From sequence record MK817115.1: DNA of 64,000 nucleotides. One strand, written 5' to 3'. The notes under the pieces are model-generated. The model worked only from the letters and a program-made list of their open reading frames with translations. It was not told the origin of the DNA and did not search any database. The translations under genes were made by a program, and so were the position numbers. Shown here in pieces: positions 33,331 to 62,006 of the stretch. Positions within the stretch are counted from its first letter, which is position 1; each line of letters begins with the position of its first letter. The stretch comes from Escherichia phage vB_EcoM_phAPEC6.

Positions 33331-33828
33331 TTAAGTCACTGCATTATACTTCTCTATAGCATTAGTAATATTTAATATAGCTTCAGGAACCATTTCTTTA
33401 TTGTATTCACGTTTTAAATTTTCCATTTTCTTAATAATTTCCAAGAAAAATGGCAAAATGCATGAAGTATCTGTGAAATTACATGAGTACAAAGTACTCA
33501 TTTGAAATAATTCACCTGAATCAATATTAAGAGATTTGTATTCCTTAACAATGTTTTCGTTTGTATTGAAAATATGAAATACTGTTCCCATGTGATGAAG
33601 ATATACACCATTCTCATTTTGAATATTGCATGGTGTGATTACAATAGCAGTGTTGTCAATATTATTTACTATTGATAAACGTAGACTATGTAAACCTAAA
33701 ATAACAGTACAATCACTTGAACTGCTTTGAATTTGGTCAGCAGTTTGTGTAACACTTGTAATATTTTCCCCATCAAGACAACTCTTGATTTTATCAAATG
33801 AATTTTTCATTGATTTAGTTAGATACAT
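33331..33828 (-). CDS. EE-FQ family paralogue
   Basis: SGELFQMSTLYS. Confidence 0.5.
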   Translation of the reverse strand: MYLTKSMKNSFDKIKSCLDGENITSVTQTADQIQSSSSDCTVILGLHSLRLSIVNNIDNTAIVITPCNIQNENGVYLHHMGTVFHIFNTNENIVKEYKSLNIDSGELFQMSTLYSCNFTDTSCILPFFLEIIKKMENLKREYNKEMVPEAILNITNAIEKYNAVT

Positions 33829-34232
33829 TTATGAACACCTTCGAAATATTTGATTAATGATTTTATCTTATCGCTACTAATGCCATGTAAGTCAACACCT
33901 AAACACTCGTATTGAAAAAAATCAATATCCTCAAGCGTGTTTAGATCAATTTCCACCTTATCATGACCCAACGAATTCATAATAACGTTTTTATCATTAA
34001 TTGTCAAGAAAGTTTTTTTATCTGAACCTAAAAAGATTTTTACGTGTTTTTTTGGCATTACATCATAAGATAAAGATTGTGAACCATAAATGTATATGCC
34101 TTCCATTGAACCAATATCTATAAAATATAGACGAATCCCTTTGTGGTATTTTGACTCCTTAGTGATCGCCTCTATTAGTTCATCTGTGGTTGTTAACCTT
34201 GTTTCTTTCTTCTCTAAATTGCTCAAATGCAT
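33819..34232 (-). CDS. hypothetical protein
   Basis: ORF track. Confidence 0.45.
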   Translation of the reverse strand: MHLSNLEKKETRLTTTDELIEAITKESKYHKGIRLYFIDIGSMEGIYIYGSQSLSYDVMPKKHVKIFLGSDKKTFLTINDKNVIMNSLGHDKVEIDLNTLEDIDFFQYECLGVDLHGISSDKIKSLIKYFEGVHKCI

Positions 34233-34653
34233 AAAATAATACCTTGATCATTTGTAATGTTTCTGACATTACATCAGCAGAAAATTGAACATCAGTGTAT
34301 TTTACCATAGTACTTTGAGTAAAGAAAGTAGCTTCAATATCATCAAGGTCAAATGGTTCATCAAATAAATTAGTACTGAACATATCAGTTTTTTTCTTAT
34401 AAGTCAACATAAACTTAGCACTGTATCTCAATACAATTTCATCTTTACTTACTAAAATTCGTGCAATGTTCTGTCTACCCAGTGTTGTAATGTTAACATT
34501 AAACGTATTCTTTCGTGCCTCAACAATATCAACGAAATAACCATCACCTTGGTAAACGTTATGACGAACTTCTAATCCTTGTTGAACTGTATTGAACAGT
34601 GCGTCCTGGATAAAATAATTTGCAGTATCGATGTTTCCTAAAATATCTAACAT
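34180..34653 (-). CDS. hypothetical protein, divergent EE-FQ-like
   Basis: DIEATFFTQSTMVKY. Confidence 0.45.
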   Translation of the reverse strand: MLDILGNIDTANYFIQDALFNTVQQGLEVRHNVYQGDGYFVDIVEARKNTFNVNITTLGRQNIARILVSKDEIVLRYSAKFMLTYKKKTDMFSTNLFDEPFDLDDIEATFFTQSTMVKYTDVQFSADVMSETLQMIKVLFYAFEQFREERNKVNNHR

Positions 34654-35183
34654 AACTTCTCCTTTATAGCTGTCATATTTAGAAGAAATTCAGTAAGCAA
34701 TTCCTCCGTAACATGCTCTGTATACCAGAATATCACAATATCTTTTGAAAGTCGTGTATTCATAAAAATATCTACTAACTCTTTGTAGTACTCTAGCGTT
34801 TCGAGATTTGTGAGAATTAACGAGTACTGAAAGAGTAATTCTTCAGTTAGATTAAATTCTGGATAAAGTAAATCATTGAACTCATGTGATGCAGTTTGAA
34901 CTTGAATTCGGTCAAAGTTATTGGTTATACAACCGGAATAAATATTTCGGTGCAACTCTCTGTACAACGCAGCATAATCTATGAATTTTGCTTTAGGGTT
35001 AAAATCAAGAACACTTTCACCTTTATATGACAATCGGTGGAACGCCGAGAACATAGTCACTTCCCACGGTTGCCTAATATCTAGCTCAGTGATATCAATA
35101 TTATTGGACAGAAGAACCGTAAAAATCTCACCAATCTTTAATAGTAATTTTGTACGTGCCAGTGCTACCATCGGGTCAGTCAT
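34647..35183 (-). CDS. EE-FQ family paralogue
   Basis: TEELLFQYSLIL. Confidence 0.55.
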   Translation of the reverse strand: MTDPMVALARTKLLLKIGEIFTVLLSNNIDITELDIRQPWEVTMFSAFHRLSYKGESVLDFNPKAKFIDYAALYRELHRNIYSGCITNNFDRIQVQTASHEFNDLLYPEFNLTEELLFQYSLILTNLETLEYYKELVDIFMNTRLSKDIVIFWYTEHVTEELLTEFLLNMTAIKEKLC

Positions 35184-35596
35184 TATACACCTTCATATTC
35201 ATCAAGAAAATCTTCGATAATCATTTCAGCTTCATCCATATGCATAGCATCAACTTCAATGATGCGAACTTTAGATGCATCCCAAATCATATAACTAGGA
35301 ACATTATCAGGCTCGTAGTCATTTTTGTACTGAACAGCATCGTAACCTTTCGAAATACAATGTTCAATTAGTGCACGCCACTCATCATCACTACCTAAAT
35401 CTTCACACAGAAGCACGTTATCAACATCAACTTCTAAGGTATGCAAGTATACTGTACATGCGTCTACTACGTTCAGTGGGCTTCTCAGCTTGCGTAAGGC
35501 AGCTTCCAAAGCACTGTGTTTGCCTCCCATATGAAGTCCACCATACGGGATATAAAAGTTATCAATTTTTACAGTACTCGCATGATACAGTTTCAT
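35183..35596 (-). CDS. hypothetical protein
   Basis: ORF track. Confidence 0.45.
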   Translation of the reverse strand: MKLYHASTVKIDNFYIPYGGLHMGGKHSALEAALRKLRSPLNVVDACTVYLHTLEVDVDNVLLCEDLGSDDEWRALIEHCISKGYDAVQYKNDYEPDNVPSYMIWDASKVRIIEVDAMHMDEAEMIIEDFLDEYEGV

Positions 35597-35605
35597 ATTT
35601 CATTC

Positions 35606-36190
35606 CTATTTCAGTACTTTAGTCAATGCTTTCACAGCGGTTTCGAGTTGAGCATAGTCGTTAATTGTAAGGTAATGAATACCATGTGCATTCATTTCAG
35701 CATCTATTTTATTATATAAATCAAACATGTCAAGGATATGATTGTATGCATATGAAGTATTTGAAACACACAATTCTTGGAACAAACGTTCTTCCAAGTC
35801 ATTCACAACTTCTCCATGAATATCAAGTACTACACCATCTTTGTAAGTGTAGTACTCTTCACTCCACTCTTCAGAAAGTCGGAACAGTAACGGATTCCCG
35901 CCGAACACTTCCATGTCATAGGAATTTATCTCACTAAGTAGTGTTTCACCTGGTTCTGGTGTGAAGTCAAAATATGCGAGTGTTGTACCATCATAGTCCT
36001 TGAGTGATATACCAGTATGATTTAAGGTTACTTCACCATAATTATTATTCTTGAACTTGATTTTGATATTAATCTCAATGTATTTTATTGTCTCATCATC
36101 ACTGAAATTGTAATCAATTTTATACTTTTTCCAAAGAAGTTTGATATCTTTGAAGTACTTTAATTTACTTTCAATTTCTTTAAAGTCCAT
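35606..36190 (-). CDS. EE-FQ family paralogue (divergent)
   Basis: EERLFQELCVS. Confidence 0.5.
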   Translation of the reverse strand: MDFKEIESKLKYFKDIKLLWKKYKIDYNFSDDETIKYIEINIKIKFKNNNYGEVTLNHTGISLKDYDGTTLAYFDFTPEPGETLLSEINSYDMEVFGGNPLLFRLSEEWSEEYYTYKDGVVLDIHGEVVNDLEERLFQELCVSNTSYAYNHILDMFDLYNKIDAEMNAHGIHYLTINDYAQLETAVKALTKVLK

Positions 36191-36782
36191 CTGGAACCAC
36201 CATTTCTTGAATGTGCTTACATTTTATATTTGCCATATTGGTATGTAATATAATGCTGTGTTTACGCAATGATTTTACTTTGTAGCACTCATTGAGTACC
36301 GAAATAATTCCCCATAACTCTTCTACACTAATAGTGATAGGTTCACTTGTACTCAGTTGCATCAGTGCTGCTTGAACATCATCTTTGTTATTAATAGTGA
36401 ACTGGATTCCTCTTTTGAGAATTTTAGTTTTTGGATTGTACTCAGCTAATACATCACCTTCTGGATAACCCTCATGAAGTAATAATGTTGTTTCAAAATC
36501 ACCGCAGTTGAAGTTAATTTCATCATAATCAGGTACACAAATGTTCCCTTCCCCGTACTCATTAGGTTCAGATTCTAGTGTTAAAATACGCTGAGTCTCA
36601 TTGCTCAGGATGATAGAATCATTCCAGTACTGGGTAGTGAATGCTCTACGTTTCTTTTGAAAGCACATACTCGACATTGACCCATACTTCTTGTATATGG
36701 ACTTCTTGAACTCAATAGCAGCAGGAGCCACCTTGATAACTTCACGAATTAAGTCAATAGCTTCTTGATAACTTTTTCTCAT
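36180..36782 (-). CDS. hypothetical protein
   Basis: ORF track. Confidence 0.45.
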   Translation of the reverse strand: MRKSYQEAIDLIREVIKVAPAAIEFKKSIYKKYGSMSSMCFQKKRRAFTTQYWNDSIILSNETQRILTLESEPNEYGEGNICVPDYDEINFNCGDFETTLLLHEGYPEGDVLAEYNPKTKILKRGIQFTINNKDDVQAALMQLSTSEPITISVEELWGIISVLNECYKVKSLRKHSIILHTNMANIKCKHIQEMVVPDGL

Positions 36783-37330
36783 TTATCGTATCCATATAAA
36801 ATATGATCTAGTGTACTTTGGACTTCTTCATGAAAGAATGAAGGGTAAACTTGTATTAATTTATCTTTAAGTTCAAGGGAATGGCATAGTTCTAATGTTT
36901 TGTAACAATCCTCGTACTGTGCCAGATCATGTAATGTACTTAACTGAAAATGTTGTTCTTCGGAGTACAATAAATCATAAACCATATTATCGGATAAAAG
37001 ATTAGATTTGATTGAAGGATCAAGTACTGTCTGGTGGTGACCAACCCAAAAGATAGCTTTTGAGTTAATGTTATTACAACCCCATCCTTTCCCCATCTTT
37101 TGGTGAATAGCAAATACACAGGAATCATACAAATTAATGCTCAGACGTTCTTCGTCTGCATGGATAGTTACACCATCAATAGATAGTGTATATTTGAAAT
37201 CCATAGCCCCCTCACTTCGTGCACGAGAACTAAAGACCAGATATCGATGAATTATGGTATTGATTTTATCTGTCCATCCATCAACACATTTGGATGCACA
37301 TAATGTAAAAAGATCATGATTGTAGTTCAT
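36779..37330 (-). CDS. EE-FQ family paralogue
   Basis: EEQHFQLSTLHD. Confidence 0.55.
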   Translation of the reverse strand: MNYNHDLFTLCASKCVDGWTDKINTIIHRYLVFSSRARSEGAMDFKYTLSIDGVTIHADEERLSINLYDSCVFAIHQKMGKGWGCNNINSKAIFWVGHHQTVLDPSIKSNLLSDNMVYDLLYSEEQHFQLSTLHDLAQYEDCYKTLELCHSLELKDKLIQVYPSFFHEEVQSTLDHILYGYDK

Positions 37331-37360: not shown

Positions 37361-37386
37361 AAAAATACCAGAGTCAACCCCTGGTA
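37361..37386 (-). terminator. rho-independent terminator downstream of 37392..37973
   Basis: TACCAG-(9-nt loop)-CTGGTA then TTTTTG on minus strand. Confidence 0.4.
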
Positions 37387-37391
37387 CGAAT

Positions 37392-37973
37392 TTAATCCAT
37401 CATAAGTGGGATAATTGCCCATATCTTTTTCATAATCATATCTTCAGTAAAAACAAATGTTTTAGGAGCAGTATATGATATTGACACACCAAATGGAAGT
37501 TTGATTGCATCATCAATTATATTATGAATATCAAACCATGTTTTAACATAATCATACGGTGGAAGTTCATGAATTGTACTTAACTGAAAGTAATTCTCTT
37601 CACCAAAATCACTATATTCAATTTCACAAATTTTAGTGAATTGATGATTCCATTTAGATATAATACTATTTTTATTATTGTACATAGTAGTTCTATGCAT
37701 AAAACCATTTTTGCTAGTATGATTTGATATTACGTTTTCTTCAATGTCAGTATCTATTTTAAAATTCATATCAAAGTTGTAGTACGGACTTGACGATTCT
37801 TTGAATTTTAAATGTAAATTGCGATTGTTATTAATTTCAATTTCAATACAAAACACATCTGAATCAAAACGATTAAACTTGTAATCGTTATCTTCCGGTA
37901 GATTCTGTATTTTTTTCATAATACTAAGCATAGGGTGTACTACACTTTTAATAAAATCATTTGTTATTTTCAT
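37392..37973 (-). CDS. EE-FQ family paralogue
   Basis: EENYFQLSTIHE. Confidence 0.55.
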   Translation of the reverse strand: MKITNDFIKSVVHPMLSIMKKIQNLPEDNDYKFNRFDSDVFCIEIEINNNRNLHLKFKESSSPYYNFDMNFKIDTDIEENVISNHTSKNGFMHRTTMYNNKNSIISKWNHQFTKICEIEYSDFGEENYFQLSTIHELPPYDYVKTWFDIHNIIDDAIKLPFGVSISYTAPKTFVFTEDMIMKKIWAIIPLMMD

Positions 37974-38466
37974 AGTATTCCTTTAGAACTTTATATGATT
38001 CAACAATACTATCTTGTGTATAATTTGAACTATATACAACAGCACTTGTTTTAGTTGACCATAGATATGACATAAAGGTTATAACACTACTACATGGACT
38101 TAATGTATTGTTTTGAAATTCAATTTCTTCAATGTTATCAGTACTGGTATAGATGAATTGGAAAGTACCCATTGATTTATTGGACAGCGATACTATAGTA
38201 GAATCCGTACCAGGACTATACATGAATGTCTCATTACTAATTGAACTATCATTAGTATATGATGGTTTGGGAATATAAATCAAACGCATGATATCGCGTT
38301 CAAGACCTGACTTATTACTTTCCACCAAAGAAATCATATCTATATTTGATATATGTTCAACACTGACATGGAACTTTTTGTCGAGAATCACATCTCCATG
38401 AGAATTTTTATATGAAGACAAAATCTCATACATCTCAACTAATTCGCGTGCATTTAATAAACTCAT
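37957..38466 (-). CDS. EE-FQ family paralogue (divergent)
   Basis: EEIEFQNNTLS. Confidence 0.5.
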   Translation of the reverse strand: MSLLNARELVEMYEILSSYKNSHGDVILDKKFHVSVEHISNIDMISLVESNKSGLERDIMRLIYIPKPSYTNDSSISNETFMYSPGTDSTIVSLSNKSMGTFQFIYTSTDNIEEIEFQNNTLSPCSSVITFMSYLWSTKTSAVVYSSNYTQDSIVESYKVLKEYYENNK

Positions 38467-38891
38467 GTTTTGTCTCTTAATGAAAGAATATCCTTAGTAT
38501 AAACTGAAACAGAAATATGATTATATTTCATCATTAATTTATACACATAAGAAGCTAGTACTAAATCGTAAATTAATTTAGTATTATACAGTACTTGGTA
38601 TTGTAACGCAAGTGAATCAATATCATCTTTACTTTCAATATCCAGAAATGTACCGAAAAATGTAGTACCGTAGAGATGAAAAGTGGAATTAATGCAATCA
38701 ATGCATTCATTGTCCAATAGAGTAGATGCTGATGCCCTCGGTGAATCCCAAATAGTCACTGCGTGTATGCCCTCAACGAACAAATCTATCCATATTTTGT
38801 GTCGTTGTCTTTTTTTTGTTTTATAATTTTCTGGATTTGAAAGTGTAGTTTCAATTATATCCCATATGTACAAACAATCATCTCTTGTCAT
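38463..38891 (-). CDS. hypothetical protein
   Basis: ORF track. Confidence 0.45.
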   Translation of the reverse strand: MTRDDCLYIWDIIETTLSNPENYKTKKRQRHKIWIDLFVEGIHAVTIWDSPRASASTLLDNECIDCINSTFHLYGTTFFGTFLDIESKDDIDSLALQYQVLYNTKLIYDLVLASYVYKLMMKYNHISVSVYTKDILSLRDKT

Positions 38892-39469
38892 TGTAGCACC
38901 TTATCCATTGCTGCATTTAATGCTTTTAAACGATCAACATTCAAAGTATTGAAGATGTACGTTCCTAAAATGTGGAAATCGAATTGGTTCTTTTTGTATG
39001 TATGATAAATTAAACTACAAAAAACAACAGTACTAAGAACCTCTTCAGGTATAACAGTGCTCATCTGGAACAGTTCTTCTTCAACTGTACTTGAATCTGG
39101 ATTGATAGCTTTTAACACATACTCTTCATCACCGAATAGTACTTTAATATTATATAAAACACCAATAGTACTAATATGGAATGGGTGATGTGAAAAACTT
39201 CCATCATCCTTAATTTGTATATCGGTTCTAATCTCACACTCTTCATTACTTTTACTTTTATTTTTTACAATACAAATATTTCTGGCCCCAGAAATAGTAA
39301 GAATACCGTGGTCGTAATATTCATTTGACCAACATTTAGATGAAATTGATACATCACGGATGAGATATTGTTTTTCAATTTCTTTCGCACTACCAACAAT
39401 TGATAGCATTTTTTTACTGATATCATATAATAACTGATGGCGTTCTGTCATATAACTATAAGCGTTCAT
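38888..39469 (-). CDS. EE-FQ family paralogue
   Basis: EEELFQMSTVI. Confidence 0.55.
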   Translation of the reverse strand: MNAYSYMTERHQLLYDISKKMLSIVGSAKEIEKQYLIRDVSISSKCWSNEYYDHGILTISGARNICIVKNKSKSNEECEIRTDIQIKDDGSFSHHPFHISTIGVLYNIKVLFGDEEYVLKAINPDSSTVEEELFQMSTVIPEEVLSTVVFCSLIYHTYKKNQFDFHILGTYIFNTLNVDRLKALNAAMDKVLQ

Positions 39470-40040
39470 ATTTTTCCTTAACAGATTCTATATTTTGAAG
39501 TAGTGTATTCAGAACATCAGTCTTGCAATTGATAAAATCATTGTACATAACTAGTTCACCACAATCAAGAATTTTTGCAGTATCGTAACAAAGCATTAAG
39601 TACTCGAATTCTTTGTAATTGTCCAACAAGGATTTCTGGAAAATGAATGCATCTCGAATATCTTCACTTTGGTCTAATTCTGGTGGAACATCCAACCCAA
39701 TAAATCCATCATCTTCACTGAAATTAGATTCTACAATTTTATTCATTTTTTCATGTAATGCATTCGCAAATACCATATTAGAAGAAATAGAACCAATACG
39801 TTCACGATTTCTGGATGTGCGAATGTACATAGTAATCGTATCCCATGAACTTTTAATTTTTTTAGAAAATTCATAAGTTTTATATACATCCAACTGAACT
39901 GATCCAAAACGATGTTTGGATTTGTTTTCAATTTTCAGTCGATAATCATCAAATTCAACAATTTCTGTAATGTCATGAATCTCTGAAAGTTCTGCAATGT
40001 CATGCATGAGTCTCAAAATTTTAGTTCTGATATGGTTCAT
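39456..40040 (-). CDS. EE-FQ family paralogue
   Basis: RDAFIFQKSLLD. Confidence 0.5.
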   Translation of the reverse strand: MNHIRTKILRLMHDIAELSEIHDITEIVEFDDYRLKIENKSKHRFGSVQLDVYKTYEFSKKIKSSWDTITMYIRTSRNRERIGSISSNMVFANALHEKMNKIVESNFSEDDGFIGLDVPPELDQSEDIRDAFIFQKSLLDNYKEFEYLMLCYDTAKILDCGELVMYNDFINCKTDVLNTLLQNIESVKEKYERL

Positions 40041-40615: not shown

Positions 40616-40669
40616 CTCTAGTTAAAATCAAGTATAACACACCTGAATGCTCTTGTAAAGCCATAAACA

Positions 40670-40690
40670 CAAAAAGACCCATACGGGTCT
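40670..40690 (-). terminator. rho-independent terminator directly after 40691..41257
   Basis: AGACCC-ATAC-GGGTCT with flanking A-run and T-run. Confidence 0.55.
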
Positions 40691-41257
40691 TTATTTTGGT
40701 AAAACACTGTCAATGTACGCTAGAACCTCATCTCGAAGGTACGTTCCATCTATAGTTAGGTAATAGTTCATGGGAATATCACTCCCAACCTTCTCATAAA
40801 TTTTCATACATGATATCACATCTTCATCACAAATGGTACTCAATTGAAAAAGAACTTCATCGGTTAACGGTACGATATCATGTTTAGATAGGGGATTTGT
40901 ATTTTCATTCAACACAATATTAATCAAGTTAGGAGTATTCTTTGACGAAATATAACGATGCTTACTACGAATTACCATTCTCGATAGTGAAATACTGGAA
41001 CTCCATCTTGGATCAACATCTTCATATGATAACGATATTAACATCTCGTGAAAATCTTGAAATTTCATTGACGCATAATATGTTTTATCCTCACCGTACA
41101 TACCAAATGATTTAAATTCAATATCCCCCACTTTGTATGTATCGACATCATTATTTGAGAACTTTATTAAACTATTAATTAGTCTAATTAGAATATCATC
41201 TTTATCCATTCTTAAATAACTCCAAGTGCATGTCGTATAAATCTCTGAAGTCTTCAT
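40691..41257 (-). CDS. EE-FQ family paralogue
   Basis: DEVLFQLSTICD. Confidence 0.55.
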   Translation of the reverse strand: MKTSEIYTTCTWSYLRMDKDDILIRLINSLIKFSNNDVDTYKVGDIEFKSFGMYGEDKTYYASMKFQDFHEMLISLSYEDVDPRWSSSISLSRMVIRSKHRYISSKNTPNLINIVLNENTNPLSKHDIVPLTDEVLFQLSTICDEDVISCMKIYEKVGSDIPMNYYLTIDGTYLRDEVLAYIDSVLPK

Positions 41258-41765
41258 AGAAATCTTTTTCTACCAGAATATCCTTTAAACTAGGAAACTC
41301 TTCCATAATTTCTTCTATATCCGATTCTATGAAAAACCCTGATGGTTTATCGTAGTTTTGTAACAGATAACTGAAAGTAATAATGTAAAGAAGTTCATTA
41401 GGATTGTGAATTAAACTTAGCTGGAACATAGCTGATTCTAAATCGGATTCAGTACTAAGATCAACCCAACGTGAATTTCTATAATCAATTCGTACTTGAC
41501 TTGTATTTGGATTCCATGTGAAGCAATGTGTACCAATATGACCTATACAACCAACCCTTGTACTGTCTCCGGTATCAACACTGATATCAACAAATAGTTC
41601 AACACAGATATCGGATGATGTTACACGACCTTTTTTCAGAAATAAATCATTATCCTTACGAAATTGTTTGGATGAAAGAGTGTCAATGATGCACATCAAT
41701 GTTTTTGCAAATGCAACACAATGACGAAATTCAAGCCTATGAAATTGGTAATCATTGATATTCAT
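41202..41765 (-). CDS. EE-FQ family paralogue
   Basis: ESAMFQLSLIHN. Confidence 0.55.
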   Translation of the reverse strand: MNINDYQFHRLEFRHCVAFAKTLMCIIDTLSSKQFRKDNDLFLKKGRVTSSDICVELFVDISVDTGDSTRVGCIGHIGTHCFTWNPNTSQVRIDYRNSRWVDLSTESDLESAMFQLSLIHNPNELLYIITFSYLLQNYDKPSGFFIESDIEEIMEEFPSLKDILVEKDFYEDFRDLYDMHLELFKNG

Positions 41766-42304
41766 AATTCAACCCCCAATATTTTATCAGCAATTGATAT
41801 AACCTTATCATTGAATACATTACCAATCTCAATCCTTATATACATAGCAGGTGGAATCTTTCCTTGTAGTGAATAATATGTTTGTATACCTAAGTACTCA
41901 TTATCTGATAATGAAAATTTGATTCTCTCCATATCAATGTCTGTTACTGGTAAATCAATCATTTCATAATGGTAGTCAACGTTTTCAGTGTATATTTTAT
42001 CGAAGTAATTTGAATAATCACTACTAATATAGATGCTATCATCACGAATAATCACTTTATAATCAGAAGGTTCAAATTTATCTTTAGAAGAAAAGAATGC
42101 ATCATCTATCTTCTCTTCTCTTATACCGAATAACATTTTACCATCATATTTTACATCAAGAATACTACCTAGTATATTAATGGTACAATGCTCATCAATA
42201 TTATGACGTAAAGAACGAGTCTTGTATTTTGGGTTAATGAAAATTTTCATTAATTTTATACAAATGTCAGTAATGCATTTTACATTCTCATTTTCTATGT
42301 ACAT
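41762..42304 (-). CDS. hypothetical protein
   Basis: ORF track. Confidence 0.45.
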   Translation of the reverse strand: MYIENENVKCITDICIKLMKIFINPKYKTRSLRHNIDEHCTINILGSILDVKYDGKMLFGIREEKIDDAFFSSKDKFEPSDYKVIIRDDSIYISSDYSNYFDKIYTENVDYHYEMIDLPVTDIDMERIKFSLSDNEYLGIQTYYSLQGKIPPAMYIRIEIGNVFNDKVISIADKILGVEL

Positions 42305-42791: not shown

Positions 42792-43192
42792 ACTTTACCA
42801 GGGAAGTGTTTCTCGTAGTACTCATCATCACTTAACATATAATCAGGAGTTTCTACTTCTATGGTTTTGAAGATTGTTTCTGGAATGTGTGTGACTTTAT
42901 TGGGTTGTACTTTATGTTCGCGTAAAACCTTCTGTATCGCTCCTAGACGTTGTAAATCGATACATGTAGGAAAGACTAAGCTGTACTGAAATAACTCATC
43001 AGGGGTCATTATAGACACATCTTTAGCTTGTTTGATTTGATAATTAGTACTAATGAATATATCAAATCCTTGTACAGCATTATAGCTTACATAGGTTGTT
43101 TTATTTTTGTCAATAGGAGCACTTAAACGATATCCATATATCCCGTGTTGGTCAACAAGACAGCGTTGCATAATTTTAATCATTTCTAACAT
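42779..43192 (-). CDS. EE-FQ family paralogue
   Basis: PDELFQYSLVF. Confidence 0.55.
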   Translation of the reverse strand: MLEMIKIMQRCLVDQHGIYGYRLSAPIDKNKTTYVSYNAVQGFDIFISTNYQIKQAKDVSIMTPDELFQYSLVFPTCIDLQRLGAIQKVLREHKVQPNKVTHIPETIFKTIEVETPDYMLSDDEYYEKHFPGKVWRD

Positions 43193-43538
43193 AATTTACC
43201 TCATATGTATTGTAACACCACGGTTTAACAATATCGATTTGTATATCATTTGCTTCATGAAAATGTTTAAGTACCTTCTGGTATTCCATTATTTCGTACA
43301 CATCTTCAGTACTTATAGTGCTCTCCTGAAATAATTCCTCTTCTGATAAAGTACTATAATCAGGGATTTTTATTTCTGAATATATATCATTTATCTTTCC
43401 ATTATATTGATAAATCTGGATATAAAATTGATTGTATTCTGGAATATAGGTTACATAATGGTTGTGGTTGATTACATATCTTGAAACAAAGTATTCAGTA
43501 CCATCAGTCATGTACTGAATTGTTGTCGTATTTTGCAT
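43176..43538 (-). CDS. EE-FQ family paralogue
   Basis: EEELFQESTIS. Confidence 0.55.
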   Translation of the reverse strand: MQNTTTIQYMTDGTEYFVSRYVINHNHYVTYIPEYNQFYIQIYQYNGKINDIYSEIKIPDYSTLSEEELFQESTISTEDVYEIMEYQKVLKHFHEANDIQIDIVKPWCYNTYEVNYVRND

Positions 43539-44471: not shown

Positions 44472-44530
44472 TGTGTTATAACCCTTTACAATTAATATAA
44501 AGGGATTATATCACAAAAAATCGGTGGGTG

Positions 44531-45115
44531 TCAAGAGTGGTTGCGAAGTTCTACCATTTCTTCCCAAACTAATTGGTAATCTTCTAAGTCCAGATAGAAG
44601 TCTTCATTCCAGTGCTCATGAAAGTACTTATACATGAATAGAACTCCTAAATCGTATGCAGGAAACAATAATGATAGTTGAAAGTAGTATTCCTGATTTA
44701 AAACTATATCAATAAACTCTAATGTACGTATGCCACCTTTCGATGAACGTATCTCAATGTGTGAGGTATCCTTCATACTGTAACACATGAAACCACCTCT
44801 AAATTCTGGATCATATTCACATTCGAACTGCTCACTGTTGTTATAGAAATCTCTCCCACTTTCTTGATCTTTCGGTCTACGTACTGATACATGAATATTT
44901 TTATCACGGTACATTGAACGATTTAGTATTTTCAAACATTTGAACTTATCTTCTTTAATGAACTTGATAATATCAATTATATCTTGTGCTGTACTGATAG
45001 CTGATTCGAATGTATCCAACTTAAGATGATTATATTGGGTTCCAGAGTTCATTTTTTTATCTAACATATAAACCTCATAATTCATACATTTTTGATTTGA
45101 ACTGCATATGACCAC
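44531..45115 (-). CDS. EE-FQ family paralogue
   Basis: QEYYFQLSLLF. Confidence 0.55.
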   Translation of the reverse strand: MVICSSNQKCMNYEVYMLDKKMNSGTQYNHLKLDTFESAISTAQDIIDIIKFIKEDKFKCLKILNRSMYRDKNIHVSVRRPKDQESGRDFYNNSEQFECEYDPEFRGGFMCYSMKDTSHIEIRSSKGGIRTLEFIDIVLNQEYYFQLSLLFPAYDLGVLFMYKYFHEHWNEDFYLDLEDYQLVWEEMVELRNHS

Positions 45116-45416
45116 CTATTTCACATGGATAACAATTCATAATTTTGTTCAATAGAATCTGGTATTTTTTAATAACTTCTATATCAATTTTTATATTACT
45201 ATTAAAAACTAATGATTCTTGAAATAATTCCCCCTCGTCAAGTGAAGTAAAATCATTTATCTTCAAGGGTATATTGTTGCATCGCAAGGAGAATGTATTT
45301 TCATCACGAATTAAAGTATAGAAATCATTATGTTTTTTATTATAATCAAATTTAACAAGTAGTAGTTTAATATGAGTAGCGTACATTACTTTAACTAATT
45401 CAGATTCACGTCGCAT
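45075..45416 (-). CDS. EE-FQ family paralogue
   Basis: EGELFQESLVFN. Confidence 0.55.
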   Translation of the reverse strand: MRRESELVKVMYATHIKLLLVKFDYNKKHNDFYTLIRDENTFSLRCNNIPLKINDFTSLDEGELFQESLVFNSNIKIDIEVIKKYQILLNKIMNCYPCEIGGHMQFKSKMYEL

Positions 45417-46124: not shown

Positions 46125-46129
46125 TTGTT

Positions 46130-51065: not shown

Positions 51066-51557
51066 TTAACCCCTGTTAATACCGTTATCTACAGTTTTCT
51101 TTACGTATTTGTAATCGAAATAGAAGTTCCCAGAACCAATACTTTTAAAGTACCACATAATTATAATAACATCAAGTACTTCATTATCGTATACAGTACT
51201 TTGTTGGAAGTAATACTCTTCACTATCCCACGGACCTTCCAGTACTTCACTCGGAATTATAATGTCATCGGAATCGCTATCAGTACTGTAGATGGTATCT
51301 GTATCATTAATATAGACCATGTACTCATTATGCATATTAATGAAGCATTCATAATCATTAGGGTCGGTATCCAGTACACACGTTTCTGTATCCAGTACGC
51401 ACGTTTCTGTATCTGAGCAGTCATTATAAAGGAGGTTATCCGGTACATAATATTGAGTACTTGTGTCTTTGAAAACACCGTAAACTGAACCTTCTTTTGC
51501 CATATTCATGTACTCATGAATCTTCTTTGCTTTTTCCAATGAACTCTGTAATGTCAT
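51066..51557 (-). CDS. EE-FQ family paralogue (recent tandem duplicate 5 of 5)
   Basis: MTLQSSLEKAKKIH ... EEYYFQQSTVYD; carries internal 7-aa duplication DTETCVL. Confidence 0.6.
   Translation of the reverse strand: MTLQSSLEKAKKIHEYMNMAKEGSVYGVFKDTSTQYYVPDNLLYNDCSDTETCVLDTETCVLDTDPNDYECFINMHNEYMVYINDTDTIYSTDSDSDDIIIPSEVLEGPWDSEEYYFQQSTVYDNEVLDVIIIMWYFKSIGSGNFYFDYKYVKKTVDNGINRG
51370..51411. repeat. 21-bp tandem direct repeat (2 units, 1 mismatch), in-frame within 51066..51557
   Basis: tccagtacacacgtttctgta / tccagtacgcacgtttctgta. Confidence 0.8.
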
Positions 51558-52279: not shown

Positions 52280-52291
52280 CAGTACTCAACC
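52210..52291. repeat. 82-bp direct repeat, copy A (5' end of gene 51923..52279)
   Basis: Near-identical to 52729..52810 (2 mismatches by eye). Confidence 0.75.
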
Positions 52292-52650: not shown

Positions 52651-52651
52651 A

Positions 52652-52808
52652 AAATCTCCTTCAGATTAGTACTGAATTTGTACAGAATATTAGAACTGTA
52701 TACAGCCTCTGTATCTGTATCCATAATCAAATCACCTTTGTTTAAATTACAAAAGTACTGATAACTGTGCTTAAAAGAATGTACTGATATTAAAAAATCA
52801 AATTCCAT
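52652..52808 (-). pseudogene. remnant ORF (52 aa): duplicated N-terminus of an EE-FQ short-subfamily gene
   Basis: Own translation MEFDFLISVHSFKHSYQYFCNLNKGDLIMDTDTEAVYSSNILYKFSTNLKEIL; first 27 aa almost identical to N-terminus of 51923..52279; overlaps neighbours at both ends. Confidence 0.5.
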
Positions 52809-52810
52809 CA
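52729..52810. repeat. 82-bp direct repeat, copy B
   Basis: aaatcacctttgtttaaattacaaaagtactgataactgtgctt...tcaaattccatca. Confidence 0.75.
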
Positions 52811-53185
52811 CTCTTCCCCTAGATTGAAATGATTACAAAAATCATCTTCACCAGTACTGCACCAGATATCTATACATTCCCTGTGAATACATTTAATTCT
52901 ACGCTGTAATTCAATCATCTCTTCTAATGTACAGATGTACTTCTTATCAAATACTAATGCCGCCTGAAACAGTGCAGCATCATCAAGTACTGTATAGTCC
53001 AACATCTCGGTTGCTTTACCCCTAAACCCAGTACTAAAATCCATCAAATAAAAGTCAGCATTCCAGTACTTTAAAATCTTGTCCCTAGCGTAGTTTAAAT
53101 CACCCTTGTATAAGTTAGAGTGCGTAACTAACTCACCAGTGTACATCCATGTCCTTGCACAAAATTCATTATATTTTATTTCCAT
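52808..53185 (-). CDS. EE-FQ family paralogue (short subfamily)
   Basis: DDAALFQAALVFDKKYICTLEEM; start set at MEIKYNEF (track start 53293 over-extended). Confidence 0.5.
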   Translation of the reverse strand: MEIKYNEFCARTWMYTGELVTHSNLYKGDLNYARDKILKYWNADFYLMDFSTGFRGKATEMLDYTVLDDAALFQAALVFDKKYICTLEEMIELQRRIKCIHRECIDIWCSTGEDDFCNHFNLGEE

Positions 53186-53381
53186 CTTAATCTCTACTAT
53201 AATTAATAAGGTAAACTCCAATATAAGGAGCACGTTGCGGGGGCGGGGTATTTTTTGTTTCAGGAAACATGAACTGTACTCTGAAAAACACAATATAAAA
53301 CTTTATATTAAACATATACCTTAGCATGTTTTTCAGCGGAAATTTTTTTGACCCCCTGCGGCCTGTCAAAACGAAACGTCT

Positions 53382-54540: not shown

Positions 54541-54882
54541 TTACATATTTGTACCGAACAAAACGGAACTGCGAACGTCATTGATCGACAATTCATGTAC
54601 ATATATATTTTGTCTGAACAAAGGAACTAATTGAACTAAACTTTGTTGCATAACAATATGCATATGTAAATTGTCATATGCCGTTTCGTATTGGAAACGT
54701 GCTGCTTCATCTTCTATGAAATTAGGAACTTGGACTGGATTTTCAAAATTTGTTCTTGAACTGAACTGCACATCATTATCCTGTACTTTAATACCATATG
54801 CATTATCATCATCATATACATCTAATTCAATTAAACTACCATCACTTTTTATGTTTACCACACAAACCGAAAATCGACTCAT
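54541..54882 (-). CDS. EE-FQ family paralogue
   Basis: EAARFQYETAYD. Confidence 0.5.
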   Translation of the reverse strand: MSRFSVCVVNIKSDGSLIELDVYDDDNAYGIKVQDNDVQFSSRTNFENPVQVPNFIEDEAARFQYETAYDNLHMHIVMQQSLVQLVPLFRQNIYVHELSINDVRSSVLFGTNM

Positions 54883-55598: not shown

Positions 55599-56222
55599 CT
55601 ATATATCCAACCCTTTTACAACATCTACGAAATGTTCAAACACTTCTTTTGAAAAATAACCACCTTCACAAAAAAGCATACTAAACGGTGGCAGCATGTC
55701 CGATAACTCTTTAGCTAAATTGATTTCTGCTCTTAACTCTTGAACATCAATGATATCATGTACTAACGATAATTGAAACATGAATGCATCTACATCTTCA
55801 TTCATTTCTGAATTGTAATATAACTCTTCAGGGAATTTGTCGGTTTCGTAATAATAAAAAACTTTATTGTTGAACACACCACTAATAGGAACATCATTTT
55901 CATCTTTCTTTGAAATGTTTGTTTCCCATGACTCTATATTATTAGGAACAAAAAAATCATAGGCTGATTTTGAACCCTGTACTGAATCCAACTTTATTCC
56001 ATAATATTCCGTATCCATGTATTTCTGCTGTAATGTAATACCACGTGTACTGACATTCACTTGGAATATATCATCTTTATCTGGAACACTAAATGGAATA
56101 CATAACACTGAATTCTCAGGGTATTTGGCAATGAATGCATCCAGCACTTTATTAAGCACCGGAATGGCAATTTTACTGTACTGCATCAAATCATACATTT
56201 TAATTCTGGTCATATCATTCAC
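55599..56222 (-). CDS. EE-FQ family paralogue
   Basis: DAFMFQLSLVHD. Confidence 0.55.
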   Translation of the reverse strand: MNDMTRIKMYDLMQYSKIAIPVLNKVLDAFIAKYPENSVLCIPFSVPDKDDIFQVNVSTRGITLQQKYMDTEYYGIKLDSVQGSKSAYDFFVPNNIESWETNISKKDENDVPISGVFNNKVFYYYETDKFPEELYYNSEMNEDVDAFMFQLSLVHDIIDVQELRAEINLAKELSDMLPPFSMLFCEGGYFSKEVFEHFVDVVKGLDI

Positions 56223-56742
56223 CTGTGTATGTTTTCACCCTTAGCGATTCAAAATCCCATACATCACTGATTGTACCATTGTGCCTGTAATCATAATATT
56301 CTACTAATACATTATACAATAACTTCAACGATACAAATTCATGATTCCACGGAGCTTTATTCTCATGAACACATTTGGTGATATAAGGTATAATATATAA
56401 ACTAAACAACACTAATGGTGAATGTATACATTGCATTTGAAAATATTCTTCTTCTTGCATACAATGCTCAGGAATAATCAATTCCGTATGTGACCCTAAG
56501 CTATACGAACCTGCTGTGTATTTTTTCGTATCACATGCGTACCATATTGTACTATCCGAAATAAATGGAATGATACCATTATTGTTTGCAATGTACATCA
56601 TATGGTAAGAGCGATTTGTCTTGTTAAATATCTCAATACTTTCGATATTACTACAAATCATGTATTCAATGCAATCAATAATCTTATCTTTAAATGCACC
56701 AATTTCATTGAATGTCATTGATTTCTGCACTTCACTGCTCAT
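56215..56742 (-). CDS. EE-FQ family paralogue
   Basis: EEEYFQMQCIHS. Confidence 0.55.
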   Translation of the reverse strand: MSSEVQKSMTFNEIGAFKDKIIDCIEYMICSNIESIEIFNKTNRSYHMMYIANNNGIIPFISDSTIWYACDTKKYTAGSYSLGSHTELIIPEHCMQEEEYFQMQCIHSPLVLFSLYIIPYITKCVHENKAPWNHEFVSLKLLYNVLVEYYDYRHNGTISDVWDFESLRVKTYTGE

Positions 56743-57281
56743 ATGTTCTCCTTAAAAAAATTCAAATACTCTTCATTGAAAGCATATGTATCATCTTTTT
56801 TGTTATGCACCACATAATCATAAAGAGCTATGAATGCAGGGATTATGATCTTACATGATTTATTATTGTATTTGTACTGCTCCAAATCAACGGTGTTCAA
56901 TTTAGCAATAAGCATAGCAGCAAAGATATCTTCATGGCGGTGTACTGTGCTGTACTGAAAATATTCATCCTCTCCAATATCGGGATGATATAACGGTATA
57001 ACCAAATTATTACGAATTGACATCTTATATTTTTGTAATGCAGCTAAATGTATGAACCACAATCTATCTTCATTGAAATATGGAAAAATAATTTTGTCTG
57101 TGCTAATAAAAATTTCTTCATTTCGATTATTTGTCACAAGAGGTGCATACATTTTAATTTTTGCAGATTTAATAATTAAATTAAAAATATAATGAATCTT
57201 ATGAACTGCACTTGATGCATCTTCGTATGTACTTGGGATTATGAAACTCACTATATGTTCTCCTTTAAAATGAATACACAT
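56739..57281 (-). CDS. EE-FQ family paralogue
   Basis: EDEYFQYSTVHR. Confidence 0.55.
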   Translation of the reverse strand: MCIHFKGEHIVSFIIPSTYEDASSAVHKIHYIFNLIIKSAKIKMYAPLVTNNRNEEIFISTDKIIFPYFNEDRLWFIHLAALQKYKMSIRNNLVIPLYHPDIGEDEYFQYSTVHRHEDIFAAMLIAKLNTVDLEQYKYNNKSCKIIIPAFIALYDYVVHNKKDDTYAFNEEYLNFFKENI

Positions 57282-57333
57282 GATAACAGCTTTGGTCTTC
57301 TATGTCAATACCAAAACGAAAAAAGCCCATATC

Positions 57334-57840
57334 TTACGATACAGGCGTTCTGGGCATGTTGATTTGAATTTCATTGTACAAATCATCAATATATAGACAT
57401 GAAAAAAATACACTATCTTGTACTATATTGTTGTGATAAAGCATTTTAAATACTACATAAAAAAATAAATCAATATCATCGTGGACTAAATTCTGCTGGA
57501 ACCACCACTCGTCTGTTAAATCTTGTGCATTAAAATCATCAGGAACTTCAATGAACGACATATCACAATCTTCTTTGTACTCAAACCACATGTCGTCATT
57601 CGGATAACGTTCATGCTTCTCTGGGTAACAATTGCTGGGATTAAATGTTAAAATATTAAACCCCGTAGAGCAACGTTCTTTATTTAAAAATGTATTATTC
57701 CATACCTGATATTTTTCACCAACATCAAGCTCTTCTGTTACTGATTTTATTGCACATAATGTACTGTATATTGTTTCTATCTTGTGAACATATTTAAATG
57801 CAGCATCTAAGCTGAACTCTAAATCATACATGTACTGCAT
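57334..57840 (-). CDS. EE-FQ family paralogue
   Basis: DEWWFQQNLVHD. Confidence 0.55.
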   Translation of the reverse strand: MQYMYDLEFSLDAAFKYVHKIETIYSTLCAIKSVTEELDVGEKYQVWNNTFLNKERCSTGFNILTFNPSNCYPEKHERYPNDDMWFEYKEDCDMSFIEVPDDFNAQDLTDEWWFQQNLVHDDIDLFFYVVFKMLYHNNIVQDSVFFSCLYIDDLYNEIQINMPRTPVS

Positions 57841-59734: not shown

Positions 59735-59882
59735 TAATGTTCTTCTCTTAAAAATCGTTTGATAGCATAATCTAAATAAAATTCATAACACATGCTATCT
59801 CTGTTCTTTATCCATATTTTGTAATCGGATTTTATATTACGCAACAAATAATTTGTATTAATTGTGTAATAATCTAATCGCC

Positions 59883-60507: not shown

Positions 60508-60695
60508 ACTATCTCCGTTCGCAACGAATTTATATAATAATGAACAAATTGTTCTTGTGAACGTGTTCCAAGAAAAATAAACATATCAAACTCTGTTGTT
60601 TTTAAATTCAATGCATCTTTTGTAAAATTCCTGTTGAATTCCCTGTACTTTTGGGTCTTCCATTCTTGATTAATTGTCTTGTATATCGATTTCAA
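60477..60695 (-). CDS. LGT-QE family small protein (dispersed copy)
   Basis: FIFLGTRSQEQFVHYYINSL. Confidence 0.5.
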   Translation of the reverse strand: MKSIYKTINQEWKTQKYREFNRNFTKDALNLKTTEFDMFIFLGTRSQEQFVHYYINSLRTEIVCKTQGIIKR

Positions 60696-60996
60696 TGATT
60701 CTCCCTGATGTACCTTGTATTAGCTTATCATACATATCGAGCATCACTTTTTGAATACTAATTAGTACTGGCATCGTGCAAATATCAATGTCGTATACTA
60801 AGCTGTACTGGAATAATTCATCTTCCTGCATTTGTACTAAATTAGGTAAAGGATAATTGTCTGCCTCTTCATCCTGGTACTTGAAATGCATAACACCATC
60901 CTTTTTGTACAAAAGAATGTCAATATCACCTAACTCATCAGCATAACCAAAAATACATATACTCGATGTTTTTGCTATATTAAATTTCATCTCCAC
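60670..60996 (-). CDS. EE-FQ family paralogue
   Basis: EDELFQYSLVYD. Confidence 0.55.
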   Translation of the reverse strand: MEMKFNIAKTSSICIFGYADELGDIDILLYKKDGVMHFKYQDEEADNYPLPNLVQMQEDELFQYSLVYDIDICTMPVLISIQKVMLDMYDKLIQGTSGRIIEIDIQDN

Positions 60997-61232
60997 CTCT
61001 CTCCGTCAGCACAAGAGTACTGGTACGTTGTCGTTAGGGTAGGGACCATGTTTGTAATGGGCATGTTGTTAACAATAACCGTAACAGGCATAAGAATCGT
61101 CTCTACTCTACTCTGTCCTGTCCTTGTGCAATTCATCTTCTGCATTTCATCTGAATCCATGAAATACAATACAAATGGTGCAATCCCAAGAACAATACAC
61201 AAGACGATAAGGAAATTTAAAAAATTTAACAT
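60987..61232 (-). CDS. small membrane protein
   Basis: N-terminal TM segment MLNFLNFLIVLCIVLGIAPFVLYF. Confidence 0.45.
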   Translation of the reverse strand: MLNFLNFLIVLCIVLGIAPFVLYFMDSDEMQKMNCTRTGQSRVETILMPVTVIVNNMPITNMVPTLTTTYQYSCADGERWR

Positions 61233-61291
61233 AATTTTTACCCTATGATTAACGTTAGTGTACTATATCAGTAATGAAAAGTACTGTCAAG

Positions 61292-61696
61292 CTAGTATTG
61301 CACTGTTCTAATGAAAGTACCTTTACTCATGGATTTAAGCTTATGAACCTCTTCCTGCATACCCTTAATTAACCCTAAAGGTATAGGTAAATCATGTACT
61401 AAGCTGTACTGAAAGTATTCTTCTTCAGATAAAGTACTAACATCTGGAACGCCAATTTTAGTTATATAATCTTGATGTGTTGACCAATAAATTATATCTT
61501 CAGTACTATTGTACTCCCCATATACTGAACAATATTGATGAATATCTTTCCTGTACCCTTGAGCAATAAAGAACTTATCTAATGCATTACCAGCATTAAT
61601 AGAATTTACTTCGATTGTCACAGTACTTGAGCTTGTATAACTCTTAATATTATCAGTACTCTTAATACTCAACGATGTGTTCTTCATAATCACCAT
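61292..61696 (-). CDS. EE-FQ family paralogue
   Basis: EEEYFQYSLVHD. Confidence 0.55.
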   Translation of the reverse strand: MVIMKNTSLSIKSTDNIKSYTSSSTVTIEVNSINAGNALDKFFIAQGYRKDIHQYCSVYGEYNSTEDIIYWSTHQDYITKIGVPDVSTLSEEEYFQYSLVHDLPIPLGLIKGMQEEVHKLKSMSKGTFIRTVQY

Positions 61697-62006
61697 TAGG
61701 CTCCTGTTTAGATTCTTTCATTAGTACTATCATCTTATGTACTAATGGCATAGGAAACTCTAAATCCCATACTAATGATTCCTGAAAGTATTCCTCTGGT
61801 GATAAAGTACTTAAATCTTTAATATCAACGTGCTTGTATATTTTATTTTCGTAATTAACAAATGATATATATAAATCACTAACATAAGAATCATAGGTAA
61901 TTGTGAATGGTTTACCCTTGTAATCCATTACATCTCTACATAGACTACTTTTGATATATGTATGTTCAAATGATTTATATACCTTGAGTTGTATATTAGT
62001 TTTCAT
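61662..62006 (-). CDS. EE-FQ family paralogue
   Basis: PEEYFQESLVWD. Confidence 0.55.
   Translation of the reverse strand: MKTNIQLKVYKSFEHTYIKSSLCRDVMDYKGKPFTITYDSYVSDLYISFVNYENKIYKHVDIKDLSTLSPEEYFQESLVWDLEFPMPLVHKMIVLMKESKQEPNGDYEEHIVEY

Follow-up and report, generated by a model that had tools for sequence, protein, structure and literature searches.

Early gene clusters and multigene families of large viruses

The pre-early genes of T5, the host-takeover module of SPO1 and the early genes of T4 are early "host-takeover" clusters in which small genes lie towards the genome ends of large virulent phages. In African swine fever virus and the poxviruses, the MGF360/505 families and the Bcl-2-like and ankyrin families, respectively, have roles in host range and immune antagonism that were experimentally shown. 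A locus that bears comparison with both kinds of system was analysed here in Escherichia phage vB_EcoM_phAPEC6, within a stretch of 64,000 nucleotides of sequence record MK817115.1 (hereafter the window, whose coordinates are used unless another record is named). Between positions 33331 and 62006, small open reading frames (ORFs) on the minus strand are packed into a tandem array and, judged from their sequences, most of the array genes belong to one real family of paralogues, in which a Phe-Gln pair is invariant.

The reading favoured here is that the array encodes an early, diversified repertoire of host-interaction effectors that are built on a common scaffold and are not part of the virion. 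Because its timing and function are what we infer, this reading is held to be about evenly balanced between right and wrong. Promoters and genome position point to early expression, the published proteome suggests absence from virions, and a binding or effector role is proposed by analogy.

For phage CBB, it was reported that RpoD-like promoters are concentrated in the equivalent region of short hypothetical genes, in which the authors suspected early host-takeover genes (PMC5259590). This suspected early cluster (CBB_390-546) and the array are alike as dense runs of small, same-strand genes of unknown function beside a terminal repeat; clusters of the CBB type also share with it the host-type promoters and terminators, and the array members were not detected in the virion proteome. 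The clusters of CBB, T5, SPO1 and T4 are mixtures of unrelated small genes, whereas about 45 genes belong here to one diverged family with an invariant motif, and the early timing of the array is one that we infer. The terminal families of African swine fever virus and poxviruses resemble the array in their tandem, diverged paralogues near a genome end, in the reuse of one fold, in the gain and loss of cassettes and in a copy number that varies by lineage, but their hosts belong to another domain and there is no homology; the comparison is one of analogy.

In a jumbo phage, Hua et al. 2017 (PMC5646251) noted a small domain that had undergone a large expansion in tandem. The domain of the present family is unrelated to zinc ribbons and Hua et al. 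define no family; their remark may refer to the adjacent array of ~75-amino-acid (aa) genes (30 copies in phage G17) instead of this one. About 10% of the proteins were described as paralogues in the RaK2 paper, and 22 paralogous ORFs were listed in the CBB paper (PMC5259590). Besides passing remarks of this sort, no paper defining the family, its motif, its fold or its extent was found in the literature. The family is a real and large protein superfamily that is essentially undescribed, from a phage group that is known. Its kind is familiar, in that accessory genes have expanded in one lineage close to a genome end, and it stands out by its size, its invariant motif and the lack of any detectable relative.

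Delimitation of the family

All-versus-all BLASTP comparison at E <1e-5 returned only small clusters of 8, 5 and 2 members and, since pairwise clusters did not exceed eight, profiles were needed. An iterative hidden Markov model (HMM) seeded on the 8-member cluster converged at 42 ORFs. As a guard against profile drift, the profile was rebuilt 42 times, each time with one sequence left out, and scored against all ORFs together with reversed and shuffled decoys. In this leave-one-out design, 36 ORFs scored 19-84 bits, with decoys and non-members reaching at most 10-18 bits, and the other six of the 42 fell within the range of decoys and non-members. The 36 firm members are all on the minus strand, from 37392 to 62006 (Table 1). 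When outside homologues were added to the profile, the decoy maximum was 8.4 bits and seven extra ORFs of the window scored above it.

Two further approaches extended the family beyond these 36 members. A motif matrix of 20 columns, built from non-window homologues alone and applied with a threshold at the 99.9th percentile of 2,980 shuffles, matched all 36 firm members and the ORFs starting at 21669, 33331, 34647, 35606, 36779, 39456 and 55599; no other ORF of the window passed the threshold. In hhalign comparisons, nine further ORFs (36779, 38463, 34647, 39456, 20983, 21669, 55599, 37957 and 33331) scored 25.6-43.2, against a maximum of 16.3 among 36 size-matched controls from the window, and their alignments span most of the protein. 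Moreover, the homologues of 38463, 37957, 35606 and 41762 in phage A4 themselves match the family HMM. The family was accordingly sized at 45-48 members, namely 36 firm, nine well supported and three weak (54541, 35606 and 41762), in agreement with the "about 47" paralogues given by a first-pass annotation of this DNA. The dispersed copies that it placed at 20983..22247 were supported as distant members (hhalign 28.8 and 28.5 versus the control maximum of 16.3).

Ten in-array ORFs of at least 95 aa (33819, 34180, 35183, 36180, 40037, 46130, 47638, 48617, 57819 and 59883) were inseparable from the hhalign controls and were left out of the count; some of them may be very diverged members. Apart from the two dispersed copies, the family HMM found no more members in 44 kb on the side preceding the array in window coordinates, and it found none in the 27 kb beyond the array, the terminal repeat included.

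The claim that the family fills nearly 29 kb needed some qualification: the array does extend over that length, and firm members occupy ~58% of the 28.7-kb interval and ~76% is reached when probable members are included (summed ORF lengths), the ten sizeable ORFs without detectable membership lying among them. The near-identical neighbours of the first-pass annotation do not exist, the closest pair being 58% identical and the next 43%. The annotation had also spoken of a "system", a word too strong for what is a multigene family and no multi-component system. Similarity was found to reach beyond the short motif, given that the 36 firm members score above the decoys, and the motif stands at homologous positions, with F and Q in single alignment columns.

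Homologues and database coverage

A profile search of 1.84 billion representative proteins yielded 141 clusters (50% identity) at E <=1e-3, all of them single-domain proteins of 65-208 aa. An indexed search of 5.8 billion clusters matched only proteins of Asteriusvirus type or labelled "E. coli" and metagenome contigs. Among ten members scanned, no Pfam family was matched at E up to 1; no NCBIfam family was common to more than one member, and no PDB sequence fell below E 1.4. The only named groups that hold members are PHROGs, over at least nine of which (9317, 12674, 28549, 38467, 33775, 19795, 13866, 38478 and 37163) the members are scattered, all of "unknown function", and the family is uncharacterised. 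Each of these PHROGs comprises orthologues of one or a few members; weak cross-hits join some of them, and PHROGs does not unite them, whereas they form here one superfamily with ~45 paralogues per genome.

Against predicted viral structures, Foldseek returned uncharacterised proteins only, from 121Q, SP27, RaK2, GAP32, Serratia phage BF, Yersinia phages fHe-Yen9-03/04 and an Erwinia phage, the RaK2 matches being six entries with near-consecutive accessions. The superfamily occurs throughout the Rak2-like phages of E. coli, Salmonella, Klebsiella, Cronobacter, Serratia, Yersinia and Erwinia.

Invariant motif and predicted fold

The consensus core of the family is [ST]-E-E-x-[YFLH]-F-Q-x-S-[TL]-[VIL]-[YHW]-[DN]. 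In the numbering of the 51066-51557 product, F117 and Q118 are invariant in 209 of 209 aligned sequences, and E113, E114 and S120 are conserved in 74-86%. The two invariant residues occupy single columns in three alignments, that of the 209 sequences included, and they are also the only invariant positions among the 36 aligned firm members, which are 12-60% identical to the reference; paralogues that have diverged to ~15-20% identity retain the motif. The stricter pattern proposed by the first-pass annotation is real in a subfamily and does not hold for the whole family, since it matches just four ORFs as written; the same applies to its second motif, FYLD/FFLD, found in nine ORFs of which eight are firm members. 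A looser pattern, [FYW][FYW]Q-x-[ST], occurs in 19 ORFs, all within 37-62 kb and none in the first 37 kb.

Members are of two size classes, long forms of ~140-207 aa and short forms of ~103-125 aa that are devoid of the N-terminal part. They are mostly acidic, with a median isoelectric point (pI) of 5.0 and a pI <6 in 86% of members versus 61% of the other ORFs of the window. No transmembrane-like segment was seen in members, save one artefact of a wrong upstream start codon.

With the paralogue alignment as input, AlphaFold2 predicted the long form 51066-51557 confidently (predicted local distance difference test, pLDDT, 90.3; predicted template modelling score, pTM, 0.84). The model opens with a helix (3-22), which six strands follow; further helices span 103-107, 113-119 (the motif), 125-139 and 149-157. 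The model of a short form (43176-43538) consists of five strands and two helices, with a pLDDT of 70.8 overall and of 87-97 in blocks of residues 51-90. The first long helix beyond the sheet carries the motif in both models.

The presence of conserved polar or acidic residues (E113, E114, Q118 and S120) within eight positions could suggest small enzymes with a Glu-Glu, Gln and Ser catalytic site, whose paralogues differ in substrate specificity. This explanation was considered quite improbable: just F and Q are invariant, the Glu and Ser residues vary in 14-26% of sequences, which is low conservation for catalytic residues, no enzyme family was matched by sequence or fold, and the motif helix, packed after the sheet in the two models, has a placement typical of structural cores. 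The core was also compared with the cleavage site of TEV/3C proteases (E-x-x-Y-x-Q followed by G/S), which was rejected: Q is followed by various residues (N, Q, E, Y, L, K, M, A, G) and, unlike in that site, the conserved Ser stands two positions past Q. The likeness of EEYYFQNS to ENLYFQS is coincidental.

The topology of p32, attributed to Jiang et al. in 1999, reportedly comprises an N-terminal helix, consecutive antiparallel strands and C-terminal helices. The p32/gC1qBP/MAM33 proteins (PDB 7te3, 3qv0, 3jv1 and 1yqf) resemble the long-form model in this order of elements and both are acidic; unrelated sheet-plus-helix folds score equally well (RNA polymerase beta lobe, 6.0 and 5.9; polo-box, 5.6). 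No sequence-profile similarity to p32/MAM33 was detected, the Pfam scan being empty and no such PDB chain appearing at E up to 10. The likeness of the model is hence put forward as an architectural resemblance, and membership is not claimed.

Genome setting, transcription signals and virion evidence

The window is 98-99.9% identical to Escherichia phages vB_EcoM_CRJP21, G17, PBECO4, Sharanji and 121Q, all of the genus Asteriusvirus, Rak2-like jumbo myoviruses of ~350 kb, and it is part of a jumbo phage that is virulent, as the first-pass annotation had supposed. Its GC (guanine plus cytosine) content is ~32%, with negative GC skew throughout, and 142 of its 149 non-overlapping ORFs are on the minus strand.

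The array lies ~27-56 kb from the right genome end. According to the G17 record, it starts ~6.4 kb inward of a 20,668-bp terminal repeat, a size also given in the Sharanji paper, and is transcribed away from the right end. The onset of the repeat is ~4.5 kb past the window end. Its copies in G17 are 1-20,668 and 350,150-370,817 (1-4000 and 350,150-354,149 are 100% identical). Along the direction of transcription from the right end, the terminal repeat, with many small genes and terminators, is followed by ~30 genes of ~75 aa, then by the family array and then by genes of nucleotide metabolism and DNA transactions on the same strand as the array.

The Sharanji record begins at a position equivalent to 52696 of the window, in an intergenic gap, from which it had first been inferred that the array straddles the terminal repeat; this was refuted by the G17 record. 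Sharanji 1-24000 is 100% identical to G17 334,373-358,372 and, through this identity, the terminal repeat maps inside the Sharanji record, at ~15.8-36.4 kb, so that the start of that record is arbitrary and no physical end.

Four promoter-like sites with an extended -10 TG (12/12, 11/12, 11/12 and 10/12 matches to the sigma-70 consensus) were found in four of the nine intergenic gaps longer than 40 bp (Table 1). The strongest coding-strand sigma-70 matches of the region sit in these few gaps, two of them directly after terminator-like hairpins, and a terminator is annotated in G17 at the same place as the hairpin 57346-57325. The published phAPEC6 virion proteome comprises 62 proteins, none of them between gp347 and gp549, and no family member is listed in it (51066-51557 corresponds to gp442c). 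A role as virion or inner-body protein was rejected on these grounds. Together with the equivalent region of CBB, the sites in the gaps and the absence from the virion proteome support indirectly the "early region" of the first-pass annotation; no Asteriusvirus transcriptome was found in the literature.

On its strand, the array immediately precedes the genes of nucleotide metabolism and DNA transactions, a position that would also fit a role internal to the phage, in which members act as assembly chaperones or as adaptors in replication, transcription or DNA condensation, with the FQ motif docking on one phage partner. The strict invariance of F-Q and the conserved EE and S suggest one shared interaction, and the array order is conserved across the genus. 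Nevertheless, some near-identical phages lack or replace single members, an unusual behaviour for core machinery, the copy number ranges from 17 to ~45 between genera, and no member was found in virions; such a role is regarded as unlikely.

Duplication, selection and cassette turnover

The best paralogue of a member lies within two positions in 42% of cases, against 11% expected (maximum of 32% in 2,000 permutations), and this excess of paralogous neighbours over chance is the signature of local tandem duplication. In comparison with 121Q, the pooled ratio of nonsynonymous to synonymous substitution rates (dN/dS) was 0.30 in the family as against 0.10 in upstream genes outside it, and dS itself was ~four times higher in the family (0.080 versus 0.022). 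The family genes are under purifying selection.

Copy number was compared across relatives, as the first-pass annotation had proposed. SP27 and 121Q each have 40 family matches in a syntenic stretch. Most members are 95-100% identical to their SP27 counterparts and a handful only 64-80%; the firm members 45395 and 52279 are missing from SP27, as is the in-array ORF 48617, which has no detectable membership. An 85-nt direct repeat at 52197-52281 and 52726-52810, its copies 529 bp apart, opens both the 51923-52279 gene and a 52-codon remnant whose sequence departs from that of the gene beyond codon 28. The segment absent here from SP27 measures exactly 529 bp, the spacing of the repeat, which would fit recombination between the starts of paralogues.

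Phage A4, of the same genus, has a colinear array with 40 HMM matches, and its positional counterparts fall into two groups, 61-94% or 24-45% identical. Salmonella phage SE_PL, of another genus (RNA ligase 59% identical), has 17 matches in a syntenic array of ~26 genes, and at least 33 were found in a 101-kb metagenomic contig, within 20 kb and preceded by the same kind of small-gene array. From the divergence, the dN/dS values and the comparisons with A4, SP27, SE_PL and the contig, the family was seen to be old, maintained by selection and variable in copy number, with exchange of cassettes within a kept gene order.

The absence of single members from some relatives would be expected if the array were mostly dispensable duplicated DNA, kept because a headful-packaging jumbo capsid tolerates or needs a longer genome, as in the capsid-genome "ratchet" of Hua et al. 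2017. The selection data disfavour this explanation, to which little probability was given: the family has a dN/dS of 0.30, no reading frame is broken and the genes tightly overlap, paralogues of ~15-20% identity keep the invariant motif and a confidently predicted fold, and the family persists in several genera. Cassettes of phage-phage competition, whether for superinfection exclusion or as selfish modules of the addiction type, would account for the cassette-like replacement with kept gene order, and HNH endonuclease genes adjoin the array in phage A4; on the other hand, neither toxin/antitoxin-like partner gene pairs nor a membrane or nuclease signature was found. Such a role, directed at other phages and not at the bacterium, is considered improbable.

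The non-family genes 22602-22883, 29774-30661 and 31803-32657, which lie outside the array, are also swapped for very divergent alleles in relatives that are otherwise near-identical, with 41% identity in SP27 and 33% and 41% in A4, so that mosaic replacement is not exclusive to the family. Within its array, phage A4 carries a 470-aa gene annotated as a "methyl-accepting chemotaxis protein" (A4 33131-34543), and its two HNH endonuclease genes (A4 43569-43946 and 45882-46190) are located just past the downstream edge; none of the three has a counterpart at these places in the window.

An early effector repertoire as the favoured reading

According to the reading of the array as an early host-interaction repertoire, the family would have arisen by local tandem duplication in an ancestor of the Rak2-like jumbo phages and would consist of small (~100-207 aa), mostly acidic, soluble, non-virion and lineage-specific proteins, which the host sigma-70 RNA polymerase would transcribe soon after the right genome end enters the cell. 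One scaffold would be common to all, comprising in long forms an N-terminal helix, an antiparallel sheet and C-terminal helices, the first of which would bear the conserved Glu-Glu and Ser along with the invariant Phe-Gln pair. This motif would keep the fold together or provide a docking site common to all members, and divergence of the N-terminal half and loops would direct different members to different proteins of the host or of competitors. In this way, the array may act as an effector repertoire for host takeover, defence inhibition or host range, from which individual cassettes are lost or exchanged between phage lineages.

Several observations weigh against this proposal. Sigma-70-like sites are in total not more numerous than in shuffled sequence (116 versus 125 and 99 versus 116), so that the promoter argument rests on the location of the few top-scoring sites, and proteins that are small and of low copy number may escape mass spectrometry of virions. 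Furthermore, a motif that is invariant over 45 paralogues may just as well reflect a single function, for instance a catalytic site or a partner common to all members. With dN/dS well below 1 and most orthologues 95-100% identical between close relatives, there is no direct sign of positive selection, and no resemblance of the family to known anti-defence proteins (DNA mimics, anti-CRISPR and others) or takeover proteins was found by sequence or fold.

A more specific and rather doubtful form of the proposal holds that the ~45 proteins are binders on one previously unrecognised, possibly p32/MAM33-like acidic scaffold, each paralogue neutralising a different host factor or defence system, and that cassette exchange tunes the host range among Enterobacteriaceae. 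If so, this would be the largest single-fold effector family known in bacteriophage and would parallel, among bacterial viruses, the terminal multigene families of African swine fever virus and poxviruses.

One protein family without a database name takes up about 8% of a phage genome of 350 kb, and resources split it into unrelated "hypothetical" groups; once it is recognised as one superfamily, ~45 anonymous genes in each genome become a single tractable question. If members are host-interaction effectors, they would be a large untapped source of inhibitors of bacterial proteins and defence systems, and might help to determine the broad host ranges that make these phages of interest for therapy. 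Otherwise, the array would still illustrate clearly how tandem duplication enlarges the genomes of jumbo phages.

Table 1. The array, its transcription signals and the members of the family (window coordinates). LOO, leave-one-out HMM score in bits; motif, motif-matrix score; hhalign, hhalign score (control maximum 16.3).
Feature	Coordinates	Strand	Details
Tandem array with family	33331..62006	-	66 close-packed ORFs, 51/65 junctions overlapping
Perfect sigma-70 site TTGACA-18-TATAAT, extended -10 TG	44505..44534	-	12/12; 59-bp gap upstream of 43995-44471
Sigma-70-like site TTGACA-17-TATAGT, TG	61262..61290	-	11/12; 59-bp gap upstream of 60987-61232
Terminator-like hairpin and T-run (57346-57325), then TTGACA-17-TATCAT with TG (57308-57280)	57280..57346	-	
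Terminator-like hairpin (40692-40673), then promoter-like TTTACA-17-TATACT with TG (40659-40631)	40631..40692	-	
Terminator-like hairpin	37365..37387	-	in 61-bp gap
Firm, 193 aa, motif GEENYFQLSTIHE	37392..37973	-	LOO 21.6; motif 31.2
Firm, 193 aa	38888..39469	-	LOO 29.3; motif 21.1
Firm, 188 aa	40691..41257	-	LOO 19.9; motif 28.4
Firm, 187 aa	41202..41765	-	LOO 30.3
Firm, 167 aa	42288..42791	-	LOO 40.0
Firm, 137 aa	42779..43192	-	LOO 28.0
Firm, short form, 120 aa, modelled	43176..43538	-	LOO 42.8
Firm, 164 aa	43504..43998	-	LOO 35.1
Firm, 158 aa	43995..44471	-	LOO 40.0; phrog_12674
Firm, 194 aa	44531..45115	-	LOO 33.5; phrog_28549
Firm, short form, 113 aa	45075..45416	-	LOO 24.3
Firm, 147 aa, without SP27 match	45395..45838	-	LOO 36.9
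Firm, short form, 120 aa	45762..46124	-	LOO 36.1
Firm, 186 aa	46723..47283	-	LOO 20.5
Firm, 149 aa	48171..48620	-	LOO 38.7
Firm, short form, 104 aa	48925..49239	-	LOO 19.3
Firm, 150 aa, motif SEEYYFQNSTVYD	49236..49688	-	LOO 67.0; phrog_9317
Firm, 162 aa	49666..50154	-	LOO 71.8
Firm, 147 aa	50154..50597	-	LOO 46.7
Firm, 156 aa	50594..51064	-	LOO 51.5
Firm, 163 aa, long form modelled	51066..51557	-	LOO 84.1; 100% identical to phAPEC6 gp442c
Firm, short form, 119 aa	51567..51926	-	LOO 36.7
Firm, short form, 118 aa	51923..52279	-	LOO 50.4
Firm, short form, 123 aa	52279..52650	-	LOO 33.8; on 529-bp segment absent from SP27
Paralogue remnant, 52-codon ORF	52651..52810	-	opened by 85-nt copy (52726-52810, 96%) of 51923-52279 5′ end
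Firm; true start probably internal	52808..53293	-	LOO 27.8; G17 annotation 125 aa
Firm, 207 aa	53979..54602	-	LOO 23.8
Firm, 171 aa	54879..55394	-	LOO 20.2
Firm, 175 aa	56215..56742	-	LOO 27.5; phrog_33775
Firm, 180 aa as longest ORF	56739..57281	-	LOO 22.1; SP27 annotation 170 aa
Firm, 168 aa	57334..57840	-	LOO 26.8
Firm, 188 aa	58147..58713	-	LOO 26.6
Firm, short form, 103 aa	58685..58996	-	LOO 27.1
Firm, 182 aa	58986..59534	-	LOO 34.6; phrog_19795
Firm, short form, 108 aa	60670..60996	-	LOO 34.8
Firm, 134 aa	61292..61696	-	LOO 38.9
Firm, short form, 114 aa	61662..62006	-	LOO 38.4
Well-supported distant, motif SEEQHFQLSTLHD	36779..37330	-	hhalign 43.2, probability 93.6%; motif 30.5
Well-supported distant	38463..38891	-	hhalign 34.9, probability 86.6%; A4 counterpart HMM 35.6 bits
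Well-supported distant	34647..35183	-	enlarged HMM 20.8 bits (decoy maximum 8.4); hhalign 34.7; motif 25.0
Well-supported distant	39456..40040	-	hhalign 33.0, probability 76.8%; motif 6.9
Well-supported distant, motif DAFMFQLSLVHD	55599..56222	-	hhalign 26.9; motif 16.0
Probable distant	37957..38466	-	hhalign 26.4; A4 counterpart 16.1 bits
Probable distant, downstream edge of array	33331..33828	-	hhalign 25.6; motif 12.6
Probable, dispersed, 229 aa, 11.7 kb outside array	20983..21672	-	hhalign 28.8; enlarged HMM 16.1 bits
Probable, dispersed, 192 aa, motif PEHFQISTLYD	21669..22247	-	hhalign 28.5; motif 9.8
Weak candidate	54541..54882	-	enlarged HMM 14.9 bits; hhalign 17.6, borderline versus control maximum
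Weak candidate	35606..36190	-	motif 7.4; A4 counterpart HMM 19.6 bits; hhalign not above controls
Weak candidate	41762..42304	-	sole support: A4 homologue (30% identity, 56% of length), HMM 27.9 bits

Neighbouring genes and other paralogue clusters

A second tandem family, of genes of ~70-88 aa and separate from the main one, occupies window positions 60241-64000 and beyond, with an additional copy at 47442-47660. Its own HMM matched 12 copies in the window, of which one lies inside the main array, and 30 in the stretch of G17 that separates the main array from the terminal repeat. A third cluster of paralogues, at 24119-26264, consists of four to six adjacent genes of ~90-103 aa with mutual E values of 1e-5 to 1e-7. 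Among the very few plus-strand genes of the window is 4690-5067, whose counterpart in CRJP21 is annotated as a "putative Sir2-like protein".

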